From a virus, in the IMG/VR virus record IMGVR_UViG_3300006864_000001, positions 1-58,659 of that record: a DNA stretch of 58,659 bases; one strand, given 5' to 3'. Position 1 is the first letter of the stretch; each line of letters opens with the position of its first letter. Positions 754 to 58,659 of the stretch are shown in pieces. Below the pieces are notes generated by a model that saw nothing but the letters and a program-made list of their open reading frames with translations, was not told the DNA's origin and made no database searches. A program made the position numbers and the translations under genes.

Positions 754-962
754 TGCACCTTCTTAAGCCAAGATGGTGGCAACATGGCGAACTGATTGAC
801 CTGTATCACAAACGCTAGGCCGTCCTCTTCGCTCATGTCACGGATCTTCGGTGAAACATAGATCGCCATATCAAACAAGCGATAGACATGCAGCTCGTAA
901 CGGCTGCGAGTGAAATCCTCGATGAGAATGCAGAATCCCTCTGGCTCCCAAATCTTCCGCAC
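732..962 (-). CDS. Hypothetical protein
   Basis: 76-aa ORF in the co-directional gene array; short overlaps with both neighbours. Confidence 0.5.
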   Translation of the reverse strand: MRKIWEPEGFCILIEDFTRSRYELHVYRLFDMAIYVSPKIRDMSEEDGLAFVIQVNQFAMLPPSWLKKVQWWSYGG

Positions 963-976
963 GAATGTTTCCGTGT

Positions 977-1243
977 CTACTTCTTGCTTTTCGATGCTCT
1001 CAATGCATCCATCCTTCGTTCGATGAGCCGGTTAATGTCGTCGGTTGAGTAGTTAGTAAAGTTTTCCCCTTCAAGCGCTGTGACCATGAGTAGCTTGTTA
1101 TCCGAAAGAAGCCCGTAGATCCTGTCTGTACCGCGAATCAAGAATTCGTCAGGATGTTCCTGAAGCCAGCTAAGTGTTTTAGAGAACTCCTCCTCAAACG
1201 AAGCTGGCTCGATATCGAACGGCGTGTAATGAAATTCGTCCAT
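977..1243 (-). CDS. Hypothetical protein
   Basis: 88-aa ORF with GAGGAG RBS just upstream of the ATG; contains PDEFLIRG, so possibly a distant EEFL-family relative. Confidence 0.6.
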   Translation of the reverse strand: MDEFHYTPFDIEPASFEEEFSKTLSWLQEHPDEFLIRGTDRIYGLLSDNKLLMVTALEGENFTNYSTDDINRLIERRMDALRASKSKK

Positions 1244-1251
1244 ATTTCTCC

Positions 1252-1386
1252 TCAGTGCAGGTGCAGATCCCGAAGTAGAGACTGCAAAGCGATTAGCAGA
1301 TTGTAAATGACATTCACCGATTCTGTCGGTGCGGCTAGCAGGATCAGCACACCGGTAATGATGATCTTCGTCTTGTGTTCCCTCAT
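1252..1386 (-). CDS. Small membrane protein (44 aa)
   Basis: Read by eye: MREHKTKIIITGVLILLAAP... The ATG overlaps the stop of 1383..1625. Below the ORF-track size cut-off. Confidence 0.35.
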   Translation of the reverse strand: MREHKTKIIITGVLILLAAPTESVNVIYNLLIALQSLLRDLHLH

Positions 1387-1625
1387 GCGTTTTCCTCTTT
1401 CTTGTGATAGTCGTATCTGAGTCGTCGAAGTTTGATCATGAAGTCTATGTATTCGTCTAGTGGAACTTCATCGCAAGCTGGATGCGTGTACTCGGTAATT
1501 ACATGCGAATCCTCGTTTTCGACAGCCAGCACAAATGCCTGAGTCTGCTTGTCGGTTGCGATCGCGAACATGCCGTCGTGTTTGTACATCTCGAGGAATT
1601 CATCTAGCGAAAGTTTTTCACGCAT
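1383..1625 (-). CDS. Small hypothetical protein, EEFL-motif paralogue
   Basis: ORF 1383..1646. Start moved to MREKLSLDEFLEMY, which is preceded by GAGAGG. C-terminal PLDEYIDFM matches the family pattern. Confidence 0.6.
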   Translation of the reverse strand: MREKLSLDEFLEMYKHDGMFAIATDKQTQAFVLAVENEDSHVITEYTHPACDEVPLDEYIDFMIKLRRLRYDYHKKEENA

Positions 1626-1872
1626 TGTTCGCCTCTCGAGCCGCATTAAAAGCGCAGCACGCCTAGGTTCCAGAGATTAAAGATGATTACGATGGCGAAT
1701 ATCCACCATGATGCGCATCGTTCACACAAACACATAGTTTTTACCGCAGAAGACCCGAGTAGAATACTGCCCAGATAAGCGCCCCGACAAGACCCCATCC
1801 TATGATGTAGAATCGTATCAGCCACAGAACATTTTTGTTGTACTCGGAGATTTGCATTCTTTGATTAGCCTT

Positions 1873-2106
1873 TCATTTTGTAGCAGGACAGTCAAAGCAT
1901 TTTTGCGTAACAACTCCGTCTACTGTCTCCCTCTCGAATTTGTGATTCGTCTTTGTTTCGTCTTGCACGTGCCCGCAGTTAATGGCGTCTTTGCAGTATC
2001 TGGTTCGAGTCTGAATGCAGTTGGCGTCCTTGAAGCCCCATGCAGACCAGTTATTCCAGTCATGTCTGTGAACGGAAGGGTCGGTACCCCATGAGAAAGA
2101 CATCAA
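1873..2106 (-). CDS. Cys-rich small protein
   Basis: 77-aa ORF with several Cys/His (CIQTRTRYCKDAINCGH, CFDC). Confidence 0.5.
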   Translation of the reverse strand: MMSFSWGTDPSVHRHDWNNWSAWGFKDANCIQTRTRYCKDAINCGHVQDETKTNHKFERETVDGVVTQKCFDCPATK

Positions 2107-2312
2107 TGGCCCCCGTCTCTAAACGCGATCCCGTCGTTCCAGCCATCTTCGTACATCTGCTGCTCTTCGCGCTTGCACTGGGCCTTTATCTCCTGGATCG
2201 TATTAGCCGCTTCGAGTGACCTGTTTCTGAGCATGCGGAAGAACATATGGAATACCCCGACGTAACCGATAGCCATGATGCCGATCACGGCGAACAAGAT
2301 TTCGTCTAGCAA
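2103..2312 (-). CDS. Small membrane protein
   Basis: 69-aa ORF with an N-terminal hydrophobic helix (ILFAVIGIMAIGYVGVF); ATGA overlap with the next gene. Confidence 0.5.
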   Translation of the reverse strand: MLDEILFAVIGIMAIGYVGVFHMFFRMLRNRSLEAANTIQEIKAQCKREEQQMYEDGWNDGIAFRDGGH

Positions 2313-2325
2313 GTTAATCGCCTAT

Positions 2326-2646
2326 CTAATCGTTTTGGATAAGAAAGAACTTACCCAATCTATAGAACTTAATTTTGTAATGACCCGGTTCCGTGATCAT
2401 CTTATCTCGTTCAAGATCGTTAAGAAGCATGAAGAACGTAAGATTCTTATAACTGAAACGTCCCCAAAATCCCACGCTTCGTTTGAACGTGATTGAGTAT
2501 GGTTCACTTGAACTATCGATTGTGAACGTCTTGACTATTCGCGGTTTCTTGTCATGACTTATTCTGATCAGATAAACCACTATGATGATACTGAGGATCG
2601 TAAAAACCCCAGCATACGTATAATACATTTGTAGTTGATAGGGCAT
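2326..2646 (-). CDS. Membrane-anchored hypothetical protein
   Basis: 106-aa ORF with an N-terminal TM helix (YAGVFTILSIIIVVYLI). Confidence 0.55.
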   Translation of the reverse strand: MPYQLQMYYTYAGVFTILSIIIVVYLIRISHDKKPRIVKTFTIDSSSEPYSITFKRSVGFWGRFSYKNLTFFMLLNDLERDKMITEPGHYKIKFYRLGKFFLIQND

Positions 2647-2647
2647 G

Positions 2648-2830
2648 TCACTCCCCGTTGTTCAGCACGTCATCGACACGAGCCAGATATCCGGCATTGT
2701 ACGAGTTATTGAGTTGTTCCTGCTTAGTCTTCCGCCAGTTACACTTAGCTTTGTAGAGGGCGCAGAGCACGCCAACATTGACTACGATACACCAGACTAG
2801 AATGATCTCGTAAATTTGCACCCAATGCAT
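2648..2830 (-). CDS. Small membrane protein
   Basis: ORF 2648..2899. Start moved to MHWVQIYEIILVWCIVVNVGVL, directly after the upstream stop. Confidence 0.45.
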   Translation of the reverse strand: MHWVQIYEIILVWCIVVNVGVLCALYKAKCNWRKTKQEQLNNSYNAGYLARVDDVLNNGE

Positions 2831-2831
2831 G

Positions 2832-3092
2832 TTAAACTCCGAACGTTCCGTTTGGTGAATCTGCAGCGACCTTCTCGAGATCTTCCAGGAACATGTCATA
2901 AACTTCCGGATTTGTATGAATAGGGCTCGGACCGAGATAGCTAATCGGGTTCTCGACCTCGTGCTGAACTATGAGCTCGATCTCGTTAATTTCTGTGTTG
3001 ATGATCAGCGCCCAGTGCGGTGCCTGAGCGACCTCGTTGAGGAATTCTTCGGCCGTTAGCCGCTTCATCTTGGGATTCTTTCGCTTAACCAT
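2832..3092 (-). CDS. Small hypothetical protein, EEFL-motif paralogue
   Basis: ORF 2832..3134. Start at MVKRKNPKMKRLTAEEFLNEV (TGATG overlap with the upstream stop). Contains ISYLGPSP..VYDMFLEDL. Confidence 0.6.
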   Translation of the reverse strand: MVKRKNPKMKRLTAEEFLNEVAQAPHWALIINTEINEIELIVQHEVENPISYLGPSPIHTNPEVYDMFLEDLEKVAADSPNGTFGV

Positions 3093-3753: not shown

Positions 3754-3774
3754 AAGTGTTCCTTTCGTAGGGGG

Positions 3775-3803
3775 TTCATTATAGACCATGTTTTTCACGC
3801 GAA
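3775..3803 (-). promoter_or_regulatory. Conserved promoter-like motif, copy G
   Basis: Minus strand TTCGCGTGAAAAACATGGTCTATAATGAACCCC, matching the six other copies; sits right after hairpin 3804..3835. Confidence 0.5.
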
Positions 3804-3835
3804 TTTTAAGAGCCCCAGTCAAAGGGCTCTTAAAA
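3804..3835 (-). terminator. Stem-loop immediately downstream of gene 3838..4035 (I-shaped terminator candidate)
   Basis: 12-bp perfect stem ttttaagagccc / gggctcttaaaa with an 8-nt loop; no U-tract. Confidence 0.45.
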
Positions 3836-16943: not shown

Positions 16944-19900
16944 CTAGCTGGTGAACCATTCAAAGTCACCGTAATTGGAGATATTCGTGACAGCCGCATC
17001 CACGAGCTTCGTGAAATATGACATGTCGATTGATTCTTCTAGCTCCTCATCAATCCCGAACTTCAGGACGTGAGCTTCCTTCCAGAAGTGACCCTTGGTG
17101 CCGGAAGCCGCGTGGAATGCGCCGTCCTTACCCCGGAGTAGAGTGCCTCCGCCGGTTCCCGCGAGGACAGGAACGAATGCGCCCGCTCGTCCGACGAAGC
17201 GAGGCTCTCCATCGCCGAAATCAAGGTAGAGAGCAGTCGTGACAGTCTTTGTCTCAGTGAAGTCATGATAATTCAGAGGTTCCTTACTGAATAGAGTTTT
17301 GAAGACGTAAGGGTGCTGGAACTGTGCTCCGGTTGCCGTCCAAGTGCCATCGTGCTTCTTGGCGACGTAGACGGCGTCATTGACGAGACAGAACTTGGAA
17401 TATGTCTCTTCATGTTCAAAGTCGTAGCCATATTGTTGGCCGAATTCCATTACGAAGTTGACGATCTCCGGCGTTGCATCGGGGATCTTGATCGAATCGG
17501 TCTTAATATGAACGACCTTGAAGCCCTGCTTCTGGACCGCCTCTTTCAAGTCGATCATGAACAGGGCACCGCGCTTGGCGACGATGTTGTCTTTGTTACG
17601 CGGGTCACGGAACGGGTTGTCGAAGCTTGCTGATGTGAGACCGTAGACGATGTTGATTACGATCTTCAGCGCATAGGATAGCGCTGTGGCATCGTCTTCC
17701 GAATTGAGGTAAGGTTCGAGGGCACCGGAGAGCATTTTTCGAGCTGCAGTGTAATCCTTACGCTTGATGGCGATGCGAGCGGCCTTGAGATCTGCGAAAT
17801 TCTTCGTATAAGGACCGAATAGATCCAGCAGTTCAATCGACGTCGGGTGCATTGACGCAACGTCCAGCACGGCGACGTTTGAGTACATGCCAGGTTCGGC
17901 ATAAACATAGCCGCCCTCGCCTGTGATCTCACCCTTATACTCGCTCTTCCCGAATCCGTACGTATACCCCGGAAATAGCTCTGATAGATCTGTGTAGTTG
18001 AACTTCTCCTGCGGTCGCCTGTCGTCACCGAATATGATCCTCGCTGTGAGTTTCTGAGTGGTGTCGTTGACGGACATGCCGGCCATGTCTGCCAGGATCT
18101 GACGCGCTACGAAATCCTGCTTGCGGTCCTCGAAGACCTGTTCGGTTGTGATGACGTCGTTTGCGCAGTAGTCGAGCACATCAACCCACAAAGGCTCATC
18201 GACTGGACAGTCCCAGGGATGTCCGAGCTCCTTGTGGTTGAGTCCGAGCTCGATTTGGAATCTCTTCAGACCCTGCTTCTTGCTTGAGAAGTCGTAAATA
18301 TCGGCATACGACAATCCATACGCATCGCCGAACATCGACCCTTGCTCGCCATTGATGATCCGCTGGCTGAGTTTGAAGAGGGCCTCGTTGCTGTACCCCA
18401 TCACTCGAGCGTACAAAATATGGTTGTCGTACTTGCGGTTGTTGAATCCCACGAGCTTGAACTTGCAGAGATCCTCGATAGCAGGGCCGCTAGGATTGAG
18501 CATTTTGACGACGTTGGCATCGCCCGCGTACTTCCAGCACACCACGAAGAGATTTGGAAATACCTCAACGTCGTAGAACACAAGCCGTTCGTCCATCGGC
18601 TCAGGCTCTACCGACTTCTGAGCTGACTCCGACGCGAACTTCATGGCCATGACCGTCTTGACGCAGTACAACGAATGGTTCGTCGAGTTGTTGGCGAATG
18701 CCAGAATTCGCCCGCGCATGTCTGTCACGTCGTACGGAAGGCCGGAATTGAACGCGTCTTCGAGGATTTTCCAGATGAAGTCAACGCTTGACTTCGTTCC
18801 CGGATGAATTTCCTTCCGGAGGTTTTTCAGGATCAAAGCCCGCAAACCCTGCTCACTCTGGATAACTTTTGAATCGAGCATCTTCTCTTCCTTGATCGGC
18901 AAGCCTCCGGTGATGAGGGCGACTGGAATATCATTGCACTTGGTCAGCTTGCGTCGAAGTGAGGCTTCTCCCGTGAAGATTTTGACTTCGATTCCTTCGG
19001 CAAAGACACGACCAAGTTTCGAGACATCTCCATCATACAGGTAATGAAGGTGTATTCCTGCCTCGCCCTTACTGAATTCTGCATACGTTGCTGGCCAGAG
19101 GCTAGCTGCCTCAAGGTTTTTCTCGAGACTTTTAGCACCATTGTCTCCTTTCAGGTCAAAATCTATAACGACGTGCTGCTCGCCAGGCTTGACGTAGTGA
19201 ATCTTAGAGGTGTCAAGCTCTGCGAGCGTCGTCTTAACATTAGACCATTTCCGACCAGGAGTTTCATCCTCATTGGCATACTGCGCCGGCATATCAGCCA
19301 GCAGAGTATCGAGCAGGGAAGTCTCGACGTCCATGACTAGTGACGGCTCAGACTTGATCATCATAAGGTTAGGTCCTAGCTTATCGTGCTTGAATCCGGA
19401 GAACCAGCTGCGAATAAGAACGCCGTCGACACGCGCTCGCTCTTCGAATTTGTCGAAGTAGTTCCGCAATTCATCACGAAACTTAGACCGGTTAAGCGTC
19501 CAGTCGTAACCGCTTTCCTCACAGAACGCTTTGTATAGATTCCAGGCCTGAAGGAGCGTAGTGCCGTCTTGCTCCTTGAACAGGTCAAATTGTGACAGCA
19601 TGAAGTTATAGAATATGTCGCTTCTGAGGATCATATCGACAGGTCGATAAGTCGAGTAGTAGTTCTTTCCTAGTCGACGATATAGACGCAGGCAGTGATA
19701 TGCAATTGCGCCGAGTTCGAATCCAATTTGCGCCGTTGTTGCCGCATATTCTTCCGCCGGGATTTTTTCGCCCGTGGGGTGTACGTCGATCAAGCGCCTG
19801 ATGAGACCCGATTTTGCATCCGTAATGCGAACCGACTGGTTAGAGCCGATAAACAAGAACGCAAATATCTTGCTTGTGTAGGTGGTCTTGTACTTCTCGT

Positions 19901-20660
19901 TGATGACCAAATCTTCGTGGGATATGATCGAGTTAAGACGAGTGTTATCTTCGATCTTCGACAAGTCACCATCATGCTGAATTGCAACGAGCGGATTACC
20001 CCTAAACGCTTCCGTGGCAAACGGATTATTCGCGGTAGTTATAGCTTTCGCGTCGAACGCGGCGTAGTAACCGACGAACAACTGCTGCAGAATATTTAGG
20101 AACGTCGACTTGCCTGTCCCGGCCTCACCATACAACACGAAGAATTTCTGAATATGCCTAGAGTCGCCTGCTAGTATTGCACCGATTCCCCATTCGAGCT
20201 TACGACGCTCTTCGACAGAATATAGCACACTCATCAGACGATCGTACGCCACGATCGATCCATCTTCGATGGAATACGGCAAACGCTTTGAACTGTAATC
20301 CGCCTTCCTTGGCGGCGTATTTGCGAAGGCTAGCTTCGCGTCTAGATGATGGTTCGAATCCGGCAAGTTTCCGCAATAACTGCGAAATTCCTGCCATAGC
20401 TTGCTCCTGTAGCTCCCGAGAGTCCGAACGTGGACCGACACATCCGGACTCTCGAGTTCGTCAGCACGCTTGTAGAGATCGGCGTCAAGCAGTCGTTGGA
20501 CATCAAATTCATCCGTTGACCACAGGCCCGCTTCTTCATCCCAGATTGCATAGAAAGAGCCACCGCGAACCATCAGGTCGGACGAGCGGCGAACCGTAAA
20601 GTCTGGGTAAACCTCGACTCCACTCTTCGTCACCCGGTCTCTGACCTGATAGAAGTCCAT
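16944..20660 (-). CDS. Fusion replicase: SF3 (D5-like) helicase + AEP primase-polymerase + family B DNA polymerase with 3'-5' exonuclease
   Basis: 1238 aa. Walker A YGEAGTGKST. AEP motifs VVIDFDLK and EAGIHLHY. Exo I FYDVEVF, Exo II GFNNRKYDNHIL, Exo III YCANDV. PolB motif A LDVASMHPT, motif B KIVINIVYG, motif C HIKTDSI. Confidence 0.85.
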   Translation of the reverse strand: MDFYQVRDRVTKSGVEVYPDFTVRRSSDLMVRGGSFYAIWDEEAGLWSTDEFDVQRLLDADLYKRADELESPDVSVHVRTLGSYRSKLWQEFRSYCGNLPDSNHHLDAKLAFANTPPRKADYSSKRLPYSIEDGSIVAYDRLMSVLYSVEERRKLEWGIGAILAGDSRHIQKFFVLYGEAGTGKSTFLNILQQLFVGYYAAFDAKAITTANNPFATEAFRGNPLVAIQHDGDLSKIEDNTRLNSIISHEDLVINEKYKTTYTSKIFAFLFIGSNQSVRITDAKSGLIRRLIDVHPTGEKIPAEEYAATTAQIGFELGAIAYHCLRLYRRLGKNYYSTYRPVDMILRSDIFYNFMLSQFDLFKEQDGTTLLQAWNLYKAFCEESGYDWTLNRSKFRDELRNYFDKFEERARVDGVLIRSWFSGFKHDKLGPNLMMIKSEPSLVMDVETSLLDTLLADMPAQYANEDETPGRKWSNVKTTLAELDTSKIHYVKPGEQHVVIDFDLKGDNGAKSLEKNLEAASLWPATYAEFSKGEAGIHLHYLYDGDVSKLGRVFAEGIEVKIFTGEASLRRKLTKCNDIPVALITGGLPIKEEKMLDSKVIQSEQGLRALILKNLRKEIHPGTKSSVDFIWKILEDAFNSGLPYDVTDMRGRILAFANNSTNHSLYCVKTVMAMKFASESAQKSVEPEPMDERLVFYDVEVFPNLFVVCWKYAGDANVVKMLNPSGPAIEDLCKFKLVGFNNRKYDNHILYARVMGYSNEALFKLSQRIINGEQGSMFGDAYGLSYADIYDFSSKKQGLKRFQIELGLNHKELGHPWDCPVDEPLWVDVLDYCANDVITTEQVFEDRKQDFVARQILADMAGMSVNDTTQKLTARIIFGDDRRPQEKFNYTDLSELFPGYTYGFGKSEYKGEITGEGGYVYAEPGMYSNVAVLDVASMHPTSIELLDLFGPYTKNFADLKAARIAIKRKDYTAARKMLSGALEPYLNSEDDATALSYALKIVINIVYGLTSASFDNPFRDPRNKDNIVAKRGALFMIDLKEAVQKQGFKVVHIKTDSIKIPDATPEIVNFVMEFGQQYGYDFEHEETYSKFCLVNDAVYVAKKHDGTWTATGAQFQHPYVFKTLFSKEPLNYHDFTETKTVTTALYLDFGDGEPRFVGRAGAFVPVLAGTGGGTLLRGKDGAFHAASGTKGHFWKEAHVLKFGIDEELEESIDMSYFTKLVDAAVTNISNYGDFEWFTS

Positions 20661-25897: not shown

Positions 25898-26248
25898 TTA
25901 GCGGGGCTTGGAAACGAATCGCTTCAGGTCCTTCGGGACGCGGAAGGCAGCGTTTAGTATGGCGATGGCAGCGACTGCGCCAAGGACCACACCAGCGCCA
26001 CATGCCGCGGCTACGATGACCGTGTTAGTGACTTTCCTGGGCTTGGCCATGGGTGGCTCCTTATCAGGTGGATTGGGGTTCATTATACCCCTTGTAATTC
26101 TCGCGAGTTCGCGCCGAAGCTTTGCATGCTGCGTCTTTGGGAGGGGCTTTCCAGTGAACCGCAAATATGCACGTCCGACAATCCGCGTGATGATGTACGG
26201 CCAGATTAGCCAGAATATGAATGCCCCAACGGTCGGGAACAGCTTCAC
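25898..26248 (-). CDS. Membrane protein (two TM segments); start uncertain
   Basis: Only the 3' third of ORF 25898..26707 looks coding (FPTVGAFIFWLIWPYII..., VIVAAACGAGVVLGAVAAIAIL). An alternative start is MAKPRK at 26050, which has an AAGGAG RBS. Confidence 0.4.
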   Translation of the reverse strand: MKLFPTVGAFIFWLIWPYIITRIVGRAYLRFTGKPLPKTQHAKLRRELARITRGIMNPNPPDKEPPMAKPRKVTNTVIVAAACGAGVVLGAVAAIAILNAAFRVPKDLKRFVSKPR

Positions 26249-27553: not shown

Positions 27554-27583
27554 GTGAATCTCTCCTAAAATACGGTGACGGGT

Positions 27584-27612
27584 TTCATTATAGGCCGTGT
27601 AAAAGCTGCGAG
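27584..27612 (-). promoter_or_regulatory. Conserved promoter-like motif, copy A
   Basis: Minus strand CTCGCAGCTTTTACACGGCCTATAATGAAACCC, followed by an RBS and ATG. Confidence 0.6.
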
Positions 27613-27613
27613 G

Positions 27614-27775: not shown

Positions 27776-27887
27776 GACGTTACTCACTTTCTAGAAGTTA
27801 AAATAAGAAGCCAAGTCGTGAACTTGGGTGCATCTTCGTACTCCTCATGGGAGTCCAGTCGTGAGCTGGAATGCGGCTATGTACTTC

Positions 27888-27916
27888 TTCATTATAAGCC
27901 GTGTAAAAGCTGCGAG
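27888..27916 (-). promoter_or_regulatory. Conserved promoter-like motif, copy B
   Basis: Minus strand CTCGCAGCTTTTACACGGCTTATAATGAAGAAG. Confidence 0.55.
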
Positions 27917-27999
27917 CTTATAATGAAACCCACATAATCGTTAACTCCTCTAAAGAGGTGATCGACCTTCCCTAAAGGGATGATCGCGATTATATGGGC

Positions 28000-28028
28000 T
28001 TCATTATAGGCCGTGTAAAAGCTGCGAG
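28000..28028 (-). promoter_or_regulatory. Conserved promoter-like motif, copy C
   Basis: Minus strand CTCGCAGCTTTTACACGGCCTATAATGAAGCCC; abuts the stop of 28030..28407. Confidence 0.55.
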
Positions 28029-28029
28029 C

Positions 28030-28650: not shown

Positions 28651-28670
28651 GACGTTCTCCTTAGTAGGGG

Positions 28671-28699
28671 TTCATTATACCCCATGTAAATCCTGCGAG
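28671..28699 (-). promoter_or_regulatory. Conserved promoter-like motif, copy D
   Basis: Minus strand CTCGCAGGATTTACATGGGGTATAATGAACCCC. Confidence 0.6.
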
Positions 28700-28800
28700 A
28701 CAAACTCTTAGACCCCACGTAAAACAGTACCCCGTGTCTGCAATGGAGGGACATAGCAGACACGGGGTACTGGTTCGAGGGCCGCGGTTAGGCGGTGGTG

Positions 28801-29106: not shown

Positions 29107-29126
29107 GGTTTTCCTTTCGGTTAGCT

Positions 29127-29155
29127 CTCACTATACGCCGTGTTTTTCTCGCGAA
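29127..29155 (-). promoter_or_regulatory. Conserved promoter-like motif, copy E (divergent, TATAGT)
   Basis: Minus strand TTCGCGAGAAAAACACGGCGTATAGTGAGAGC. Confidence 0.5.
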
Positions 29156-29282
29156 TATAAGTCTCTATGCACGGGACACGCTAGATCCCGAATAATCACC
29201 CATTTGCCATTCGCCCAAGTCGCATCGCCACACGTGCAGTTTGCTGGCCTGCTCGGCGGCAAAGTTGTCGGTTCGCTGTCAG

Positions 29283-52264: not shown

Positions 52265-52487
52265 GAGTTCACCCCCAGTTACAAGGACTTTCGGAGTAGT
52301 TACAGATTGGCCCAGTAAGAGGCGCGGGAACATCTTGTGCCTGCAGTGCTGGGGTGCTGGCGAAGCTAGCGACGAAACGGGGTCGGCAAGTCACTAGCCC
52401 AAGGGAAATCCCGCTCCTCCTACTGAGGCAACCTGTAACCTCGCATGAGAAACATGGACTCTAGTAGAACCTACCAAAGGAGAAGCT

Positions 52488-52697
52488 ATGGCTATGCCCA
52501 CAGAATGTCAAACTCCTGGCGCGCAGTTCCACACAATCACCAGCGATGAAAAGCTACTTGTGTCAGTCGACTTTGGGAGACGTCTCAACCTCAGCGAGGA
52601 AGAGGCCGTCCTTCTGGAGACGAATGTCCACAACGCTTTGGAGTTGGTGCTTGCCCGGTACTACACCAAGAGTTACCGTTCTGGCCGAACCACGTAG
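52488..52697 (+). CDS. Hypothetical protein; the only plus-strand gene
   Basis: 69 aa with an AAGGAG RBS 5 nt before the ATG, followed by its own rho-independent terminator. Confidence 0.55.
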   Translation: MAMPTECQTPGAQFHTITSDEKLLVSVDFGRRLNLSEEEAVLLETNVHNALELVLARYYTKSYRSGRTT

Positions 52698-53183: not shown

Positions 53184-55862
53184 CTAGCCTCCTTTACGAT
53201 GAAGAGCAGCATCTAGTGTGCTGACTGGAATACCCAGTGAATCGGCTACTTCGGCCTGCGTAAAGCCAGACGCGAGCCGTGCTTCTGCTAGCGCTAGCTT
53301 AGAAGGAGTTACTTCTAGAGTGGCGCGAGGTGTTGCTAGTTCTCTAATTCGTTCCGTGTTTGCGTTCTCGAGAATGCTACGCAGCCTGCTAGTTGTAATA
53401 GCGCCAGCCTGTATAGCAGCCCATTGTTGATCGGTTATGTGGATCTCTTGCTTCTTAGCGCCAACGCGATCGCGAGCAGTGTTTAGTGCCTGACCTTTAA
53501 TCTTTTTAAGGTTGGCGTTCTCCATGCCCGGGTTGTCCCTGATCTTCGCTGCCACCATGGCATTGGCTAGCAACTGCGCTTGCCGTTCTAGTGGCTTGTT
53601 CTTGAGCGCTAGATTAAGGGCGCTATTCAGTTGTGCCACTTCATGCTTGTACGTTAGCGCTGCACTATTCGAGTAATCGATGCGACCTGTAGCGAGTGCT
53701 TCTTTACGAGCAGAGTTGGCCAACGCTTTCAACCTGTTAGAGTGGTTAGCGTAGACCTCTTCTATGGGCATGCCTGACGACAAGGTGTGCGCGTTGTTAG
53801 TCTCGAGCAAAGGCTTGGACGTTGTCAACTTAACAACTGTTTTGCCAGTGTTCTTGTTAACATAACTAGCGCCAGTCTGGACATAGATCTTCTCACCAGA
53901 CTTGGGGTCCACGGATCCGCCTTGTGAGGCCTTACGCAGAACCTTCTCAGGAACCTTAATTGCAGCGTTACCTGATCTGGAGATGATAGTTGATGCGCCT
54001 GCTAGACGACCAGACTTGCCTCGTCCTTGATAGGTCTCTTTGAGCGAGGCTATGCCGTTGTCTACGTATGACTGCCGATAGTTAAGATTGTGTTTCTCGG
54101 CATCGATGACGACCATCGAATGACGAACGGCTCGAGCGAGCTCGTCATTCCTGGCGCCCTTGATTGTCATATCCGTGATAAGGTTTGAGACGTCGCCCAT
54201 TTGCTGCTGCTTAGCTCTTGCCGTCATCGGTACCATACCGGGGTACTCTTTATACGCCTCTTTAGGGTCGAAGTTTTCTAGCCCTTTAAGTGGCGATGTA
54301 GTTTTTAGTTCTCGCTTATCGTTGGGAATGACGAGCACTGTGTCCCCGTCGAAGTCCGCACCAGATAGGCGTTCTGCTACCTTAGGATGAATACCGATAG
54401 CGTCACGAGCTTCGCCGATAGTTGATCTTGATTCGGCATGCTTATTATTTACTCGCACTTCAGGGATCTCAAAAGTTCCCCCATGCGGGAAACGCACCAA
54501 AGCGACAGTAGTACCGTTCCTGAAGTTGGGCGCGTAAACCTCATTTTCTTTCAGCGATTCGATAGGTAGAATAACTCGAGTCGCTTGACCCGGCAAAGCC
54601 GCAGCCTTAAGATGAACAGACGCAGACTCTGCCCCATCAGCAAAAGACTCCAAGAGTTTCTGCTTGACAACGGGGTTTGTCAGCTTTGATATTTCATCGA
54701 ACTCATCTACTCTTGATTTGTAGGCGAGATCGAGTTGTCGTTTTGCTAGACCGGTACTCTGCTTCGCCAAGACCTGACTTGACAGTGAACGAGACCAATC
54801 GTTCCAATCGCCTTCTTCGTTAACGACATTCATCGGTGACTGATGTTGTTTACCATCTTTACCGAGATACGTTTTCTGCCGAACAGTTGCGCCGAACGGG
54901 TTCTCTTCGTCCGACTGCTTCTTCATGGTGTCGAGCTTGTTGCCCGTGTCATGCTTGTTCGTGTTGAACTGAAGGTCGACTCCTGCTGGGAGACCATCTT
55001 TGTACATGGCCATACCTTTAAGGTAATGTGTGCCATCGACAGCGATTCGAACTTGTGCATATCTGGATGTCCCAAGTGAAATATCGGGAACACCAGGACG
55101 AACATAGATAACGCCGTCGGCATTTGTGCCGCCTTGTTCTGCGTAGCGAATTCCGATTCTCTTGGAATCCACGTTGACCGGAGGTTTGACACCGATATAT
55201 GAAAGACCACCATCTTCGCTGTATGCGGCAACGGTCTTGATCTTGTCTGGGTTCTTTACGATGTCCACATATTTAGTTCCTGGTGGAGCAAGAACTTTAA
55301 TTGTGGTTTTCTTATTACCGCCAACCCCAACGTTCGGCGCCTGAATTTTGTGAACTTCGTAACCTCGCTCTTGAAGCAAAGCGACGGCGGTTGAAAGTTT
55401 AGTCTTGCTGATCGCTAGATGATTTTCGGTTCCTTCGCCGATATCGAGATAGCTGCCATCAGCAAGCTTGTCCTTAAGCATGTTCGACGTCGACATCAGA
55501 ACATTGCGCTTCTCCGTAAGCGCTGGATTAAGCAAAGAACGAACCGAAGACTCGTTGATGCCCATTCGTTCGCCAATGGCGACATTGGACATACCTTTAT
55601 TCTTCAGCCGTAGCGCTTGTGCGGCATCGGCTTTCTGCGTTTCGTTCTTAGCGATCGATTTGGCAGCACGAAGTTGCGTGGTAGTGATGCCAAGACCTTT
55701 GGCGATATTGGTGTCTGTCACGCCTTTGGTTTTGAGCTCTGCTACGTAGCCCAAGAAACCGCGATTATGTTCTTGTGGTTCGAGACCCGACCCCCACGGA
55801 TATCGGCCAGATCGGCGAAGGACGCCATAGTGAAGCAGTTCGTCAGCAGCAGCGTCAGCCAT
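53184..55862 (-). CDS. Candidate single-subunit two-barrel RNA polymerase (YonO / RdRP-like) with N- and C-terminal HTH domains
   Basis: 892 aa. LKGMAMYKDGLPAGVDLQFNTNK (beta-like barrel), VALVRFPHGG and SGADFDGDTVLVIPND (DxDGD metal loop). HTHs at VTDTNIAKGLGITTTQL, MSNVAIGERMGINESSV and FTQAEVADSLGIPVSTL. N-terminal LLHYGVLRRSGRYPWGSG. The CDS itself is certain; the confidence refers to the function. Confidence 0.6.
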   Translation of the reverse strand: MADAAADELLHYGVLRRSGRYPWGSGLEPQEHNRGFLGYVAELKTKGVTDTNIAKGLGITTTQLRAAKSIAKNETQKADAAQALRLKNKGMSNVAIGERMGINESSVRSLLNPALTEKRNVLMSTSNMLKDKLADGSYLDIGEGTENHLAISKTKLSTAVALLQERGYEVHKIQAPNVGVGGNKKTTIKVLAPPGTKYVDIVKNPDKIKTVAAYSEDGGLSYIGVKPPVNVDSKRIGIRYAEQGGTNADGVIYVRPGVPDISLGTSRYAQVRIAVDGTHYLKGMAMYKDGLPAGVDLQFNTNKHDTGNKLDTMKKQSDEENPFGATVRQKTYLGKDGKQHQSPMNVVNEEGDWNDWSRSLSSQVLAKQSTGLAKRQLDLAYKSRVDEFDEISKLTNPVVKQKLLESFADGAESASVHLKAAALPGQATRVILPIESLKENEVYAPNFRNGTTVALVRFPHGGTFEIPEVRVNNKHAESRSTIGEARDAIGIHPKVAERLSGADFDGDTVLVIPNDKRELKTTSPLKGLENFDPKEAYKEYPGMVPMTARAKQQQMGDVSNLITDMTIKGARNDELARAVRHSMVVIDAEKHNLNYRQSYVDNGIASLKETYQGRGKSGRLAGASTIISRSGNAAIKVPEKVLRKASQGGSVDPKSGEKIYVQTGASYVNKNTGKTVVKLTTSKPLLETNNAHTLSSGMPIEEVYANHSNRLKALANSARKEALATGRIDYSNSAALTYKHEVAQLNSALNLALKNKPLERQAQLLANAMVAAKIRDNPGMENANLKKIKGQALNTARDRVGAKKQEIHITDQQWAAIQAGAITTSRLRSILENANTERIRELATPRATLEVTPSKLALAEARLASGFTQAEVADSLGIPVSTLDAALHRKGG

Positions 55863-56418
55863 TGTATCCTTCCGCCTTGAGCGATTCTATGTATCTGTCG
55901 AAGACGATGATCTTACTCATGATGTGAGCGATCGTATCTACTTCAGGAATGCTCATTATTATTTCATCGTTTTGATACATGCGAAGCTCTATCTCGATTT
56001 CCCCAGGCTTAACGCCGTATTCGAGACAATACAAAGCCGCATAGATCTCCAGCTGGTGGATTGACCCAGGAATCACGCCAGTTTTGAGATCGTGAATTCG
56101 CAGAAAATCTTTCTTGAATCCGATGGTGTCGGCTGTTCCGTAGCTATTATCCGAGTAATACAGAATTTGTTCGGTAATCATACGAAAGCCAATACCATCG
56201 TTCACGTACATATTAAGCGTCTTACTTGTACGTGGAAGTTTGATTCCGAGTTTAATTGCGTTGTGGGCGAACTCGTGGAGTTCCGTGCCCCGACGCGCCG
56301 CTTGGGCGTTGCGGAAGACTGTCGCCAGTTTCTCGTCGTCGTAGTTTATCCAATGATAGTTGCTGGCGCTGAGAAATGCGTGACGCCCCACAAGATCCGA
56401 ATGCGAGTTGAAGTTCAC
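55855..56418 (-). CDS. PD-(D/E)xK nuclease (RecB/Cas4-like fold)
   Basis: ORF 55855..56460; start at GTG after AAGGAAG. Contains GTADTIGF...LRIHDLKTG (D...D-x-K). Confidence 0.6.
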   Translation of the reverse strand: MNFNSHSDLVGRHAFLSASNYHWINYDDEKLATVFRNAQAARRGTELHEFAHNAIKLGIKLPRTSKTLNMYVNDGIGFRMITEQILYYSDNSYGTADTIGFKKDFLRIHDLKTGVIPGSIHQLEIYAALYCLEYGVKPGEIEIELRMYQNDEIIMSIPEVDTIAHIMSKIIVFDRYIESLKAEGYNG

Positions 56419-56686
56419 GGAGGACGTCTTCCTTGTTTTGCGGATGGATAAAGGCCGCAAAAGACATCGCGTTCATCAGGTCAACGTAGTATTCCTGGTT
56501 TGGCTGTCTGACGGCTGTCGCGGAAGCTTTGCATTCGAGAACGGCCCACTTATCTCCCCAGAGAATCAGTCGGTCCGGTATGCCTTGAACTAGGTTCGGA
56601 TCTAGTTTCTGAATTATGCAGCCAGGGAACATGACGCGAAGTTCGATGACAAGATTTTTTTCAAATTCAGTTTCTATGCGAGCCAT
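56252..56686 (-). CDS. VRR-NUC-like nuclease
   Basis: AAAGGAGG RBS. GIPDRLILWGDKWAVLECK matches the PD-(D/E)xK motif. The last ~50 aa are Arg/Ser/Gly-rich and overlap the next gene by 167 nt. Confidence 0.65.
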   Translation of the reverse strand: MARIETEFEKNLVIELRVMFPGCIIQKLDPNLVQGIPDRLILWGDKWAVLECKASATAVRQPNQEYYVDLMNAMSFAAFIHPQNKEDVLRELQLAFGSCGASRISQRQQLSLDKLRRRETGDSLPQRPSGASGHGTPRVRPQRN

Positions 56687-56936: not shown

Positions 56937-57242
56937 TTATGTGGGACTATCCGCCCAGATTCTATTGCCGCATGAGCACTCCCATCGATGCGTGTGCAAT
57001 CCGGCGTCGTAACCTTTATAGACGGTGTGCGAATGAGAATGCGTTGAGGGCTTCACTGGTTCAGCAGGCTTTGCGTTGGGATCTGGGTTTGGATTAGGTC
57101 GTCTGTGTTTTGGCTGTTTGATGACAAAACCAATCGGTTCGATAAACTTAGAGAATGAGCTCAAAATGAGCAAGCATTCTCTATCTTCTATTATAGGCCA
57201 TGTAATTCCTGCGAGGACTCGACCATGGTCGACTATGTACAA
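56937..57242 (-). CDS. Possible His/Cys/Pro-rich protein; 5' end doubtful
   Basis: ORF with a TTG start and no RBS. Promoter-motif copy F lies inside its 5' third, so the true start (if any) is probably downstream of 57180. Confidence 0.3.
   Translation of the reverse strand: MYIVDHGRVLAGITWPIIEDRECLLILSSFSKFIEPIGFVIKQPKHRRPNPNPDPNAKPAEPVKPSTHSHSHTVYKGYDAGLHTHRWECSCGNRIWADSPT
57186..57215 (-). promoter_or_regulatory. Conserved promoter-like motif, copy F (head of the nuclease/RNAP operon)
   Basis: Minus strand CTCGCAGGAATTACATGGCCTATAATAGAAG. Confidence 0.55.
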
Positions 57243-57270
57243 AGTAGGACAAAAGGGTGTGTGCCACTTT

Positions 57271-57297
57271 GTGCCACTTTTGTTTTAAAAGTGGCAC
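57271..57297. promoter_or_regulatory. 27-bp palindromic site (11-5-11), GTGCCACTTTT half-sites
   Basis: gtgccacttttgttttaaaagtggcac; an extra direct half-site lies at 57261-57270. Confidence 0.7.
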
Positions 57298-57308
57298 AGT
57301 GTTTTTAG

Positions 57309-57330
57309 GGTGTTTCCGCAGGTCAGAGCC
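57309..57330. repeat. Left arm of a 22-nt inverted repeat
   Basis: ggtgtttccgcaggtcagagcc, versus the reverse complement of 57479..57500. Confidence 0.8.
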
Positions 57331-57420
57331 TTGTGTGACACTTTTTGTGCCACTTTTCCACTTTTTTTGCTAAACTTTAAAAATCTGAGTTTTTTGAGAC
57401 ATTTATCCATTCCCCCTTAT

Positions 57421-57438
57421 ATTATTATTATTATTATT
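57421..57438. repeat. (ATT)6 microsatellite in an AT-rich core
   Basis: attattattattattatt, within the AT-rich stretch at about 57350-57470. Confidence 0.85.
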
Positions 57439-57478
57439 TAAAAAGTTATAAGAAAAAAGTGGTAAAGTGGCACAAACA

Positions 57479-57500
57479 GCCTCTGACCTGCGGAAACACC
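57479..57500. repeat. Right arm of the 22-nt inverted repeat
   Basis: gcctctgacctgcggaaacacc. Confidence 0.8.
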
Positions 57501-57527
57501 GTGCCACTTTTGTTCAAAAAGTGGCAC
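57501..57527. promoter_or_regulatory. Second 27-bp palindromic site (11-5-11)
   Basis: gtgccacttttgttcaaaaagtggcac. Further half-sites AAAAGTGGCAC lie at about 57347, 57465, 57537 and 57655. Confidence 0.7.
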
Positions 57528-57590
57528 AACTTAATCAAAAAGTGGCACAAAATCGCTCGAGCAAGCAAAATTTAGATCCCGAGTTGCTCC

Positions 57591-57626
57591 CGCCACTCAG
57601 ATCAAACTTGCGAGATCTGAGTGGCG
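57591..57626 (-). terminator. Stem-loop downstream of the helicase gene (end of the long minus-strand transcription unit)
   Basis: 13-bp perfect stem cgccactcagatc / gatctgagtggcg with a 10-nt loop; no clear U-tract. Confidence 0.45.
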
Positions 57627-57668
57627 TTTAGTCAATGTCCAAAATGTCTGATTCAAAAGTGGCACACA

Positions 57669-58659
57669 TCATGCGGCAGATCGAAGGTATTCGGTTTGAT
57701 TGAAGTTCCGTTTAGCACAGAGTGACTTCCAGATAGCCACATCAATCATCGCCGAACTTCTAATCACGTAGTACTTCAAATCTGTGAACGATGTATTTAG
57801 GCGATCAGTTCGTCCTTTCGCTTGCTCGAACATTCTGTAAGAGTACGTCAGCGAATAGAAAACCATCGCGTCCGTCTCAATGCAATTCCAGCCCTCTGCC
57901 CCTGAGGCGTATTGTACTAGATACACCCACTCAAGCTGATCGGGAATCGGCTCATGCTTGTGCCCGTTCCATTCGCCGATGTGCGTATCAAGCTGCCTGA
58001 GTATCTCGAGTTCGTAGTCGTAGTTGTAGAAGATGATCAACCTAGGATGCTTGATCATCAGATCCCGAATCGCCAAGATTCTGCTAAGATCGCTATTGAC
58101 GATCCTCCGCATCAAGGCGAACAATTCGCTCACATGCCGGATCGGTCGATTCTCGAACGGATTCCATCGTCTTCGCCAGACAGTGTCAAAAAGCTCTCTG
58201 TCGTATTCCGCGAAAACGTCCACAGTATGCCGGGTCGTGTGTTTCTGGAACGGCATCTCCACAAGAATACTGCGGAGTTCCCGTACAAGCCGCTCCGTCC
58301 CAACATACCGATCCACTTTCGGGTACTTTGCGAAACGCGAGAAAACGACATGCTCGCGCAAGAACTCGGTTCTGTTCTTGTAGAACCCGTTTGCGATGAA
58401 GACTGGAATATAGTCGAGCCAGGTGTCCCCAGGTGTAGCACTCAAGAGCACCCACTGATTCTTCTTGACTATCTTCAGGAACGCCTGTACCCATACGCCC
58501 GATCCCACCACTCTCTGCTCGTCGAAGATGAAGAACGCATTCTCAACGTCCTCATACTCACCCAGATTGTTCCAGCTGTCCACCTCCGGAAATATCGCTA
58601 GCAGTCTTGCCTCGGCCTGCCAGTCACCACTATCCCGCTTCTTTGCTGTAGTGATGACA
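57669..58659 (-). CDS. SF2 (SNF2/DEAD-like) helicase, 3' part (frame open at the window end; continues at 263..1)
   Basis: ORF 57669..58583 extends without a stop to 58659. Motif II FIFDEQRVVG, C-terminal lobe YASGAEGWN, motif VI QAKGRTDR. Confidence 0.85.
   Translation of the reverse strand, partial: VITTAKKRDSGDWQAEARLLAIFPEVDSWNNLGEYEDVENAFFIFDEQRVVGSGVWVQAFLKIVKKNQWVLLSATPGDTWLDYIPVFIANGFYKNRTEFLREHVVFSRFAKYPKVDRYVGTERLVRELRSILVEMPFQKHTTRHTVDVFAEYDRELFDTVWRRRWNPFENRPIRHVSELFALMRRIVNSDLSRILAIRDLMIKHPRLIIFYNYDYELEILRQLDTHIGEWNGHKHEPIPDQLEWVYLVQYASGAEGWNCIETDAMVFYSLTYSYRMFEQAKGRTDRLNTSFTDLKYYVIRSSAMIDVAIWKSLCAKRNFNQTEYLRSAA
58537..58659. repeat. Direct terminal repeat copy 2
   Basis: Identical to nt 1-123. 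Confidence 0.95.

Follow-up and report, generated by a model that had tools for sequence, protein, structure and literature searches.

A compact non-coding region of this circular phage genome, analysed here as a single window (the whole stretch of 58,659 nt) and referred to as the hub, is, to judge from its sequence and from its relatives, probably a conserved protein-bound control site. We put the chances at about even that it is a bidirectional, iteron-flanked replication origin that is physically coupled to the promoter of the RNA polymerase (RNAP) operon. Literature searches found no description of this region, and the hub is a previously undescribed cis module of the actinophage/Firmicutes-phage supercluster with YonO-like RNA polymerase. 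The initial annotation had offered an origin or a set of operators for a dimeric helix-turn-helix (HTH) regulator without ranking the two. The anatomy and the comparative data fit an origin better than such operators, with some link to transcription. Several features favour the origin reading: no part of the genome is richer in AT than the core, the sites are phased, the layout is mirrored without a divergent gene, there are no sites elsewhere and the repeated words change in concert. It is also supported by the position of the hub at the end of the replication block and by the phage having its own SF3-helicase/polymerase replicase. Counting against it are the failure to find an initiator, the conservation of the replication proteins, the linkage to the RNAP operon and the lack of DnaA boxes.

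All 10 GTGCCACTTTT sites (≤1 mismatch) in the window fall within 405 bp (57261-57665), against an expectation from shuffles of 0.85 ± 0.88 (maximum 4), which bears out the earlier estimate of about ten; scans of the genome with 10-mer and 7-mer cores gave no credible GTGCCACTTTT-type site outside the hub. On the helicase side, an outlying minus-strand copy, S1 (GTGCCACTTTT, 57655-57665), abuts the helicase stop, and S2 (minus strand, 57538-57548) lies 21 bp, or two helical turns, from S3. S3 and S4 together form a perfect 11-5-11 outer palindrome, GTGCCACTTTT-N5-AAAAGTGGCAC (57501-57527), and its promoter-side counterpart (57271-57297), built from S9 (57271-57281) and S8 (57287-57297), is equally perfect, so that both 27-bp palindromes first described were recovered. 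S10 (GTGCCACTTTG, 57261-57271) lies 10 bp from the latter. Inside the palindromes are the two arms of an inverted repeat, 57478-57500 (GGTGTTTCCGCAGGTCAGAGGCT on the gene strand) and 57309-57331. This repeat had been given as 22 nt, which is its perfect part; in full it is 23 nt with 96% complementarity. CCGCAGGTCAG, within the helicase-side arm, recurs in the hubs of phage Scap1 and of the related loci L044, L051, L074 and L075. Further inward are S5 (GTGCCACTTTA, minus strand, 57463-57473) and, about 10 bp from it, a degenerate half-site CCACTTTTTT identified by direct reading (minus strand, 57453-57462). The matching promoter-side series, all on the plus strand, consists of S7 (GTGACACTTTT, 57335-57345), S6 (57347-57357) and a second degenerate CCACTTTTTT (57358-57367) at spacings of 12 and 11 bp. 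Spacings across the hub are therefore close to one or two helical turns. Between hub and promoter, GTCCTACTTTG (minus strand, 57240-57250) matches TTTTGTGCCACTTTT at 12 of 15 positions, which is weak evidence for one more degenerate site. Direct reading ruled out the hub sites as host -35 boxes, as there is no -10 element at 17 bp.

Sites, inverted-repeat arms and palindromes follow one another in mirrored order about an axis near 57400, at which lies an 85-bp AT-rich core (57368-57452), a candidate DNA-unwinding element assigned from base composition. The 100 nt at 57360-57459 have the lowest GC content of any such window in the genome (20%; next lowest 31%; genome 52%), and the (ATT)6 noticed earlier was found as a (TAT/ATT)x6 triplet repeat at 57420-57438 (6.3 copies by TRF). 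Inverted AACTTTTTAAA and TTTTTAAAGTT tracts lie inside the core, and 44-nt inverted arms overlap its two ends (57341-57384 and 57436-57479). As a whole, 57269-57529 (~260 nt) is a single imperfect palindrome with its axis near 57400: its alignment to its own reverse complement scores 63 versus 23.3 ± 5.0 for 200 shuffles, and its single-stranded DNA fold is -85 kcal/mol (z = -13.6). The dyad symmetry is present without a divergent gene. A simple minus-strand gene call has its widest gap at the hub, in agreement with the earlier description of a large non-coding region. GC skew does not switch at the hub, a result of little weight because all genes are co-oriented. DnaA boxes are absent from the hub, and TTWTNCACA occurs once in the window, at 7698.

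One explanation for such a palindrome is that it is a cruciform at which recombination begins. A four-way junction would be cut by the phage VRR-Nuc, an enzyme of the Holliday-junction-resolvase type, and the ends resected by the Cas4/RecB-like exonuclease, after which an annealing protein would start recombination-dependent replication or help in concatemer processing. The very stable fold would suit this, as would the continuous palindromes of 115-170 nt that make up many related hubs. Cis sites often adjoin the genes for products that act on them, and the VRR-Nuc and Cas4 genes directly follow the hub in most relatives; in phage 1706, however, they are ~3 kb away. We consider a recombination site decidedly unlikely. 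The hub palindrome has no long perfect stems, its arms being 70-85% complementary overall, and a cruciform requires neither tandem direct repeats in each arm nor the concerted switching of words, both of which argue for sequence-specific binding. The idea that a small RNA or small basic peptides are encoded here is barely credible. ORFs of 41 amino acids (57285-57410) and 40 amino acids (57446-57568) do exist, and there is a plus-strand sigma-70-like match at 57394-57423. However, the ORFs consist of repeat words and no counterparts were seen in relatives, the promoter scan was similar to shuffles (4 matches vs 2.2 ± 1.6), and Rfam gave no real match (best 43.5 bits against a gathering score of 195). 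The sub-threshold Rfam matches are to long plant miRNA hairpins and are an effect of the palindrome, which also explains the dubious 36-48-amino-acid "hypothetical proteins" annotated over the hub in GenBank records.

The neighbours of the hub are much as first described. On the minus strand, the 3' part of an SF2 DNA helicase gene (57669-58659; phrog_62 DNA helicase, E 1e-35) ends with its stop codon at 57671-57669, 3 nt before S1. Window positions 1-123 equal 58537-58659 and the circular genome is 58.5 kb; the helicase frame runs over the junction to about window position 302 (~376 amino acids). The minus-strand hairpin reported at 57591-57626 was recovered as a 13-bp perfect stem with a 10-nt loop and no U-tract. 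It is terminator-like, its RNA fold with flanks being -30 kcal/mol (z = -4.4), and we infer that it closes the helicase operon. Beyond the other end of the hub, promoter-like motif F, CCTCGCAGGAATTACATGGCC-TATAAT-AGAA (minus strand, 57186-57216), has a position weight matrix (PWM) score of 40.2; the eight minus-strand copies score 34-44, the next best minus-strand match 9.5 and the single plus-strand copy 21.3. Promoter F heads an operon of a small ORF and, within 53184-56686 on the minus strand, a VRR-Nuc-like endonuclease (56252-56686), a Cas4/RecB-like exonuclease (55855-56460) and an 892-amino-acid two-barrel (YonO/RdRP-like) RNAP with N- and C-terminal HTH domains (53184-55862). No other promoter of this class precedes the ~27 kb of RNAP, lysis and structural genes. 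The nearest full site is 45 bp upstream of motif F, none overlaps the promoter, and a scan of this hub with the promoter-class PWM gave no matches. The terminase region is ~5-8 kb from the hub. The phage-encoded replicase is a 1238-amino-acid fusion of a D5-like SF3 helicase (DUF5906 and Pox_D5) and a B-family polymerase. A DNA-binding domain was sought in the replicase and in the SF2 helicase and detected in neither, and a PDB sequence search gave no match for the helicase and only a weak Pol II (B-family) match for the replicase.

Five GenBank phages (Roney, Arcadia, Scap1, 1706 and Qui) and most of the 80 metagenomic relatives compared have an AT-rich, dyad-symmetric non-coding region at the same place, upstream of the promoter of the VRR-Nuc/Cas4/RNAP operon and usually just 3' of the SF2 helicase gene. 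Nearly all 80 IMG/VR loci, as well as Roney and Scap1, have the hub immediately after the helicase, where the block of replication genes ends. Three phages, 1706 of Lactococcus and Arcadia and Qui of Arthrobacter, have it away from the helicase but still directly upstream of the RNAP operon, which makes the transcription unit, and not a replication gene, the constant partner of the hub. A motif-F promoter follows the hub in 32 of 78 related loci, symmetry exceeds z = 3 in half of 78 hubs, and the lowest-GC window of the ~12-kb locus falls ≤600 nt after the helicase stop in 45 of 70 loci (~6% expected). At least four copies of a 10-mer were present in 9/40 related hubs compared with 0/40 coding controls. 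A modular design recurs in the family, with outer variable words, an A6CT4-type tract, an inner element and an AT centre. The comparison of the half-site with related phages that had been suggested thus gave a divided answer: the design is kept in most of them, but the words themselves are lineage-specific.

The adjacent promoter has a lineage-specific -31 to -23 element (the -30 element), and inverted copies of this element make up the hub centre in many relatives. Its density is 2.43/kb in hubs versus 0.21/kb elsewhere; the hub copies have no -10 element at promoter spacing. Several relatives have the inner hub element at -31 to -23 of the promoter, the -30 position is held by the hub word itself in L080, and Roney has, past an inserted HNH gene, a fifth inner-site copy directly against the promoter. 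These copies in the hub centre and the constant linkage to the RNAP operon support a tie to transcription, and a transcription factor alone could account for the copies. It is possible, if rather doubtful, that the hub is concerned purely with transcriptional control and has no role in replication, being an operator/enhancer array for a lineage-specific phage regulator of promoter F, of the RNAP operon and, after circularisation, possibly of the late genes. The features just described speak for such an array, as do the hub always being upstream of a conserved promoter and the RNAP operon wherever the helicase sits, and the lone position of promoter F before so many genes; concerted word switching is also typical of repressor/operator immunity pairs. 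Set against this are the 45 bp between motif F and the nearest full site, a mirror-symmetric array of ~400 bp with no diverging gene, a 20%-GC core with A/T tracts that has no obvious operator role, the absence of a promoter-class motif from the hub and the absence of sites elsewhere in the genome. In addition, no co-varying regulator gene was found, and Roney has no annotated DNA-binding protein besides the RNAP.

Another possibility, which we regard as unlikely, is that the hub is a transcription-primed bidirectional origin run by the YonO-like two-barrel RNAP of the phage. Two back-to-back copies of the -30 element at the hub centre would be recognised by the RNAP itself or by a partner protein. 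Transcription running outwards across the A/T tracts would supply RNA to prime or open the origin, and the outer lineage-specific words would be bound by a separate specificity protein. If true, this would account for the inseparability of hub and RNAP operon in phages of Actinobacteria and Firmicutes, and it would be the first replication role for the YonO-like polymerase family.

In the deposited linear records of Roney, Arcadia, Scap1, 1706 and Qui, 3.5-4.7 kb separate the hub from the right end, a distance that rules it out as a cos/pac packaging site. The constancy of this distance is what an injection-stop or anchoring site similar to the T5 iss region might show, one that would hold back or anchor the incoming DNA while the nucleases and RNAP were expressed from the 3.5-5 kb that enter first. 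Entry would begin with the right end, as lambda-type cos packaging would suggest by analogy. The promoter is on the end-proximal side of the hub and points to the end, and the HNH insertion pattern is the same here. This explanation is nevertheless very unlikely: to our knowledge two-step transfer is restricted to T5-like phages, the polarity of entry is inferred, and the hub has no DnaA boxes. Furthermore, lineage-specific words imply a phage-encoded binder, which would be absent before phage gene expression unless injected with the DNA.

The words of the hub are lineage-specific and change in concert even among close relatives. L044 and L075, whose backbones are 87% identical, have switched words at seven or more dispersed sites. 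Among the Gordonia DJ phages, the copies in the left arm change as a set, from TTGGC in Roney and Petito to TTGAC in Perkunas and Duffington, and the right arm is mixed, with GG in Roney, one G and one A in Petito and Perkunas, and AA in Duffington. Concerted change of this kind indicates that a sequence-specific protein reads the words. The RNAP-like HTH domains, proposed earlier as candidate binders, are disfavoured and were rejected as readers, as their recognition helices (NESSVRALL and GVSxSTLK types) are nearly invariant over word classes A, B, C and others in 49 RNAPs. No column of the RNAP alignment separates TAGATATT from TAGATACC lineages, and the variable patch (residues 190-215) and N-terminus track phylogeny, not word class. 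The replicase, another of the candidates named earlier, is also disfavoured, though less firmly: no hypervariable segment was found among 16 sequences or between L044 and L090, a comparison that assumes L090 to be the L075-type phage, and few loci had both a polymerase and clear words. The words of L044 and L075 are switched throughout, and their helicase, VRR-Nuc, Cas4 and RNAP proteins share 75-85% identity. The proteins encoded immediately before the helicase vary greatly and are heterogeneous. The sole strongly divergent neighbour in L044 and L075 is the TPIFDxLxxEY family (phrog_17813), which is absent from this window. An HNH endonuclease gene beside the hub is mosaic; Arcadia, Qui and this window have none at that position, which makes a mobile insertion more likely. 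No cognate initiator or regulator gene was recognised among the hub neighbours or in the annotation of Roney, in which the RNAP is the sole annotated DNA-binding protein; many small ORFs have no assigned function.

For a protein-dependent origin coupled to promoter F, we propose that a phage-encoded sequence-specific protein would oligomerise on both arms, bending or wrapping the DNA, and would melt the core or extrude it as a cruciform. The replicative machinery, comprising the SF3/polymerase fusion, the SF2 helicase encoded upstream and an ssDNA-binding/annealing protein, could then load in both directions. Promoter F, presumed strong, would fire away from the core, 45 bp past the last site, and may aid opening through negative supercoiling or a shared factor. 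Coupling of promoter and hub would link replication with the expression of the RNAP and late operon, and the upstream hairpin may shield the origin from read-through transcription.

The supercluster includes >590 helicase relatives in IMG/VR and 250 isolated phages, with hosts among Arthrobacter, Gordonia, Streptomyces, Lactococcus and others. Its signature enzyme is the YonO-like RNA polymerase, and it has so far been without a mapped origin or defined promoters. The hub and adjacent promoter provide a conserved, testable cis module in easily grown SEA-PHAGES isolates, and raise the questions of where replication starts, what reads the switching words and whether replication and the RNAP operon are wired together. 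Ready-made specificity experiments exist in the natural word swaps of L044/L075 and the Gordonia DJ phages. If the hub is an ordinary iteron origin, its value would lie chiefly in annotation.

Among known systems, iteron-plus-DUE origins, such as the lambdoid ori within gene O, oriL and oriR of SPP1 and ori/crr of P4, resemble the hub in having clustered, helically phased short words beside an AT-rich unwinding region, in lying within or beside replication genes and in the switching of words between relatives; cloned origins of lactococcal and Streptococcus thermophilus phages confer PER. The hub differs from these in its mirror-image arrays on both sides of the core, in place of one-sided direct repeats, and in its long imperfect palindrome, its constant RNAP-operon neighbour and the lack of an identified cognate initiator gene. 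Dyad-symmetric origins are known in eukaryotic viruses (HSV-1 oriS/oriL, the SV40 core origin and the papillomavirus E1 site), and their initiators are helicases, UL9 of SF2 and LTag and E1 of SF3. As in the hub, where the sites are putative, inverted initiator sites flank an AT-rich centre, and the phage likewise encodes an SF2 helicase, beside the hub, and a replicase with an SF3 domain. However, both phage helicases are too conserved to explain the word switching, and the systems are not related by evolution. Promoter-coupled origins include T4 oriF(uvsY) and oriG(34) and the primary origin of T7, and in T4 a MotA box at -30 is combined with an adjacent unwinding element. Comparably, the hub centre in many relatives repeats the -30 element of promoter F, although these copies have no -10 at promoter spacing and the hub in this window has no promoter-class motif. 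Operator arrays, such as lambda OR/OL and the stoperators of Cluster A mycobacteriophages, share with the hub a repeated short asymmetric or palindromic word whose specificity switches between relatives. Stoperators occur all over the genome, whereas the copies here are confined to a single 405-bp region, and, unlike in operator arrays, no site lies over the promoter in this window and no repressor gene was found. The phage family is lytic (PMC5513430). The T5 iss region, a conserved element, has DnaA boxes and is associated with two-step transfer (bioRxiv 10.1101/866236). The hub has no DnaA boxes and its words are lineage-specific, but its position a constant few kb from one end would fit a non-coding repeat/palindrome region of the iss type, and like the iss region it is split by an HNH gene in some members (bioRxiv 10.1101/866236).

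In our best single model the hub, the non-coding repeat region at about 57243–57668, would be a bidirectional, iteron-flanked origin coupled to the adjacent promoter, a reading to which we give roughly even chances. The hub features listed in the initial annotation were all found in place. About ten sites had been counted, and GTGCCACTTTT occurs ten times at ≤1 mismatch, all within 57261–57665 (0.85 expected), with no credible copy elsewhere in the window; both 11-5-11 palindromes are perfect, the hairpin has a perfect 13-bp stem and the (ATT)6 triplet repeat measures 6.3 copies. The inverted repeat is 23 nt long with one mismatch, the 22 nt first noted being its perfect part. Each arm also has a degenerate half-site on its inner margin, two in all (CCACTTTTTT); sites are spaced by 10, 11, 12 or 21 bp, and within each palindrome 16 bp separate the starts of the two 11-nt half-sites. 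Sites, 23-nt arm, palindrome and extra site follow in mirrored order on both sides of an axis near 57400, and the hub aligns to its own reverse complement with a score of 63, against 23.3 ± 5.0 in shuffles. With 20% G+C, the core (57360–57459) is by a wide margin more AT-rich than any other 100-nt stretch of the genome (next lowest G+C 31%). Together, the confinement of the apparently protein-read word array to one place, the mirror layout at the AT-richest, A/T-tract-rich segment, the lack of a divergent gene and a location where the replication block ends are what would be expected of a bidirectional, iteron-flanked origin. The initial annotation had offered an iteron-plus-DUE origin or operators for a dimeric HTH regulator; the origin is the better fit, whereas an operator array alone explains word confinement, mirror layout, absence of a divergent gene and replication-block position poorly. 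As ssDNA, 57255–57555 forms a single hairpin (−85 kcal/mol, z = −13.6). Such a fold could also make the hub a substrate of the adjacent VRR-Nuc and Cas4, as a cruciform or a start site of recombination, an explanation that we consider unlikely.

The first and last 123 bases of the window (1–123 and 58537–58659) are 100% identical over 123 nt; the assembly thus closes as a circle, and the phage genome is 58,536 bp long, with essentially every gene on the minus strand. In gene direction, the SF2 helicase (phrog_62; minus strand, from about 302 across the circular junction to its stop at 57669) is followed by the hub, a promoter-like motif (57216–57186), a VRR-Nuc-type endonuclease, a Cas4/RecB-type exonuclease and an 892-aa two-barrel (YonO/RdRP-like) RNA polymerase (RNAP; 53184–55862, minus strand; phrog_4291, 1260 bits). 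In Pfam the last resembles RdRP weakly; it also has an HTH_23 close to its N-terminus and a C-terminal HTH resembling sigma-70 region 4. A preprint classes this protein as a YonO/crAss-like two-barrel RNA polymerase, the signature gene of a supercluster that includes Streptomyces BI, Arthrobacter AM/AU, Gordonia DJ, Lactococcus 1706 and Faecalibacterium FP_oengus phages (bioRxiv 10.1101/842583); the words 'repeat', 'intergenic' and 'promoter' are absent from the text of that preprint. The RNAP is encoded in 250 GenBank phages; all records listed or inspected place its gene at the far right end of their linear genomes. We note that its N-terminus carries a strictly conserved HYGxxRxSGRYPWGSG motif and two tandem HTH-like segments, which, like the C-terminal sigma-region-4-like HTH, are near-invariant in 49 relatives. 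The replicase is a single 1238-aa fusion (16944–20660, minus strand) of an N-terminus without assignment, a D5-like SF3 helicase (DUF5906 + Pox_D5) and a polymerase with only one PDB match, a weak one to the B-family E. coli Pol II; GenBank relatives name it 'DNA primase/polymerase'. Upstream of the helicase (about 260–2900, minus strand) lie tandem small acidic ORFs of 76–100 aa with no database family; BLAST groups only the 90-aa with the 100-aa ORF, and the common motifs of the remainder (LTAEEFLN..., Y(L/Y)GP..., ...FL) were judged by eye. Elsewhere in coding regions, two pairs of diverged direct repeats (46228–46308/46847–46927 and 10199–10285/11979–12065, 72–84% identical) point to paralogy between neighbouring genes.

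In related phages the same type of region recurs, with words that differ by lineage. A helicase search of IMG/VR confirmed at least 594 related stretches, from which 80 loci were retained. In most loci the gap after the helicase stop is 130–560 nt, with a G+C content 10–25 points under the locus value, and in 45 of 70 the lowest-GC 100-nt window of the ~12-kb locus falls within 600 nt past that stop (~6% expected). Half of 78 hubs have significant self-complementarity (z > 3), and many are continuous imperfect palindromes of 115–170 nt. Arm-to-arm comparison reveals a common plan of outer repeated word, GAAAAAACTTTT-type A/T tract, inner element (TATCTA, TAATAC and similar) and AT-rich centre; AAAGTTTT is present in 29/81 hubs versus 2/282 control chunks. 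GenBank phages with the same kind of region are Gordonia Roney, Arthrobacter Arcadia and Qui, Streptomyces Scap1 and Lactococcus 1706, in all of which 3.5–4.7 kb separate it from the right end of the linear sequence as deposited, a distance that rules out a cos or pac role. The hubs of 1706 (L117:21634-22083) and Roney (L084:34898-35308) have in common an inner inverted repeat, CTTTAATAC...GTATTAAAG; their outer words and host phyla differ. Hypothetical proteins of 36–48 aa are often annotated over the hub region in GenBank, and GC skew, Rfam, DnaA-box and sigma-70 scans gave nothing useful for the hub; that it is a small RNA or peptide gene we regard as extremely improbable.

The promoter-like motif downstream of the hub belongs to a 31-nt family, yCTCGCrG-N3-wTTACAyGGss-TATAAT-GAA, with eight minus-strand copies (3774–3804, 26078–26108, 27583–27613, 27887–27917, 27999–28029, 28670–28700, 29126–29156 and 57186–57216), six of them grouped at 26–29 kb. 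These score 34–44 with a PWM built from the same eight copies; the next-best minus-strand match scores 9.5 and one plus-strand copy 21.3. None of the eight has a canonical -35 at 17 bp and none lies inside the window's hub, the copy at 57186–57216 (copy F) being outside it. Retention of the motif in relatives from very different hosts suggests that it may be read by the phage's own RNA polymerase, not a host sigma factor. The weaker plus-strand copy (52439–52469) precedes an RBS and a 69-aa ORF (52488–52697, plus strand), the sole candidate plus-strand gene, which has no family match and adjoins the inferred cos/small-terminase region. Downstream of copy F is a mini-ORF of nine codons, MLAHFELIL (57162–57177, minus strand), and upstream of it a perfect 14-nt palindrome, TCGACCATGGTCGA (57225–57238), absent in relatives; the 101-aa ORF at 56937–57242 is probably mis-called or shorter, since its start precedes copy F.

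Of 78 related loci, 32 have this promoter (...TATAATAGAAGG...) downstream of the hub (0.32 per kb versus 0.012 elsewhere). The hub of 1706, Arcadia and Qui lies away from the helicase, yet directly upstream of RNAP or VRR-Nuc/Cas4/RNAP genes, so that its constant partner is the promoter and RNAP operon. In many relatives a lineage-specific promoter 9-mer (-31 to -23; for example GTAGATATT, TTAGATACC, AGTAGTATC, GTACATAAT, AAATACACC and GTAACTATT) is repeated in the hub, usually as a central back-to-back inverted pair, at 2.43 per kb in hubs versus 0.21 elsewhere; none of these hub copies is accompanied by a -10 element at the distance seen in the promoter. Inverted pairs are found, for instance, at L059:7161+47/+83 (offsets from the helicase stop) and in L043, L028, L006 and L076, and the stretch matched between promoter and hub reaches 18 nt, as with AAAGATACCAAGT in L043. 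In the window the recurrence is weaker: the 23-nt arms hold CCGCAGG, close to the promoter box TCGCAGG, and the longer CCGCAGGTCAG that they contain is shared with the hubs of Scap1, L044, L051, L074 and L075. Promoter-element sharing and unbroken RNAP-operon linkage show a hub that is apparently also wired to transcription. One explanation is that it is purely a transcriptional control region; this is conceivable but doubtful, as an operator array leaves the origin-like features poorly accounted for. For the origin model, we propose that origin and promoter could be coupled via a factor common to both, via the negative supercoiling that arises behind the promoter as it fires outwards, or via both.

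The dominant hub word varies among lineages: AAAAGTGGCAC in the window, AAGTGGCACA in L070 and L072, AAAGTGGCCA or AAAGTGGGCA in Arcadia, Qui, L021 and L029, TCTTGGCAAA in about ten loci, AGATTTGACA in about ten others, and TTAGTCACTT, GTTATCCTAA, CAGATACTG and TACACACCTT in other loci; a 10-mer in at least four copies was found in 9/40 hubs versus 0/40 helicase-coding controls. Two natural experiments show hub words apparently being read as words. The metagenomic loci L044 and L075 are close relatives (helicase 83%, RNAP 80% and VRR-Nuc 85% identical) with hubs that align at 87% identity, in which no fewer than seven dispersed positions nevertheless have TTAGTCA in one hub and CTTGACG or TTTGCCA in the other. 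In the Gordonia DJ phages the left-arm copies are TGCCAAATCTG in Roney and Petito, TGTCAAATCTG in Perkunas and GGTCAAATCTG in Duffington, and the right-arm copies are mixed (GG in Roney, one G and one A in Petito and Perkunas, AA in Duffington); elements other than the switching copies are invariant. On these alignments, hub words are evidently evolving in concert. The RNAP HTHs, put forward as hub binders, have near-identical recognition helices in all word classes, and no column of the RNAP alignment follows a word variant; variation in its patches goes with phylogeny. The replicase, whose N-terminus had been suggested, seems a less likely reader: it is evenly conserved with no divergent domain (50–68% in all regions; 83% for L044 against L090, its nearest relative). 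In the L044/L075 pair, where words switch, one neighbour alone is strongly divergent, the phrog_17813 protein (49%), which is acidic, very variable, directly upstream of the helicase and of no assigned function (L044:5038-5988, L075:354-1172, L039:5273-5983, L042:5183-5920, L019:53-658, L003:1687-1962). Its N-terminal TPIFDxLxxEY motif recurs in at least eight lineages, and the protein is absent from the window.

In many relatives a mosaic HNH/NUMOD4 endonuclease gene is inserted between hub and promoter (L084:35309-35791, Roney gene 88; L085:15044-15526, Perkunas gene 90; L044:7607-8191); it is missing there in the window, Arcadia and Qui. Its Roney and Perkunas copies are 54% identical, the flanking helicase and VRR-Nuc 95–99%, and Roney has an additional, fifth copy of the inner hub site past the HNH gene, abutting the promoter. 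The iss of T5, too, is a conserved, maze-like set of repeats and palindromes close to one end, and in some phages an HNH gene divides it (10.1101/866236); that the hub is an entry-pause site of this kind seems quite improbable to us. The hub module, worth testing in the family's many cultivable members, has no description in the literature searched. Iterons plus a DUE are an already familiar kind of element, of which the hub is a distinct variant, marked by a long modular palindrome whose outer words vary and whose inner element is related to the promoter, and by obligatory pairing with a YonO-like RNAP operon in phages of two bacterial phyla.
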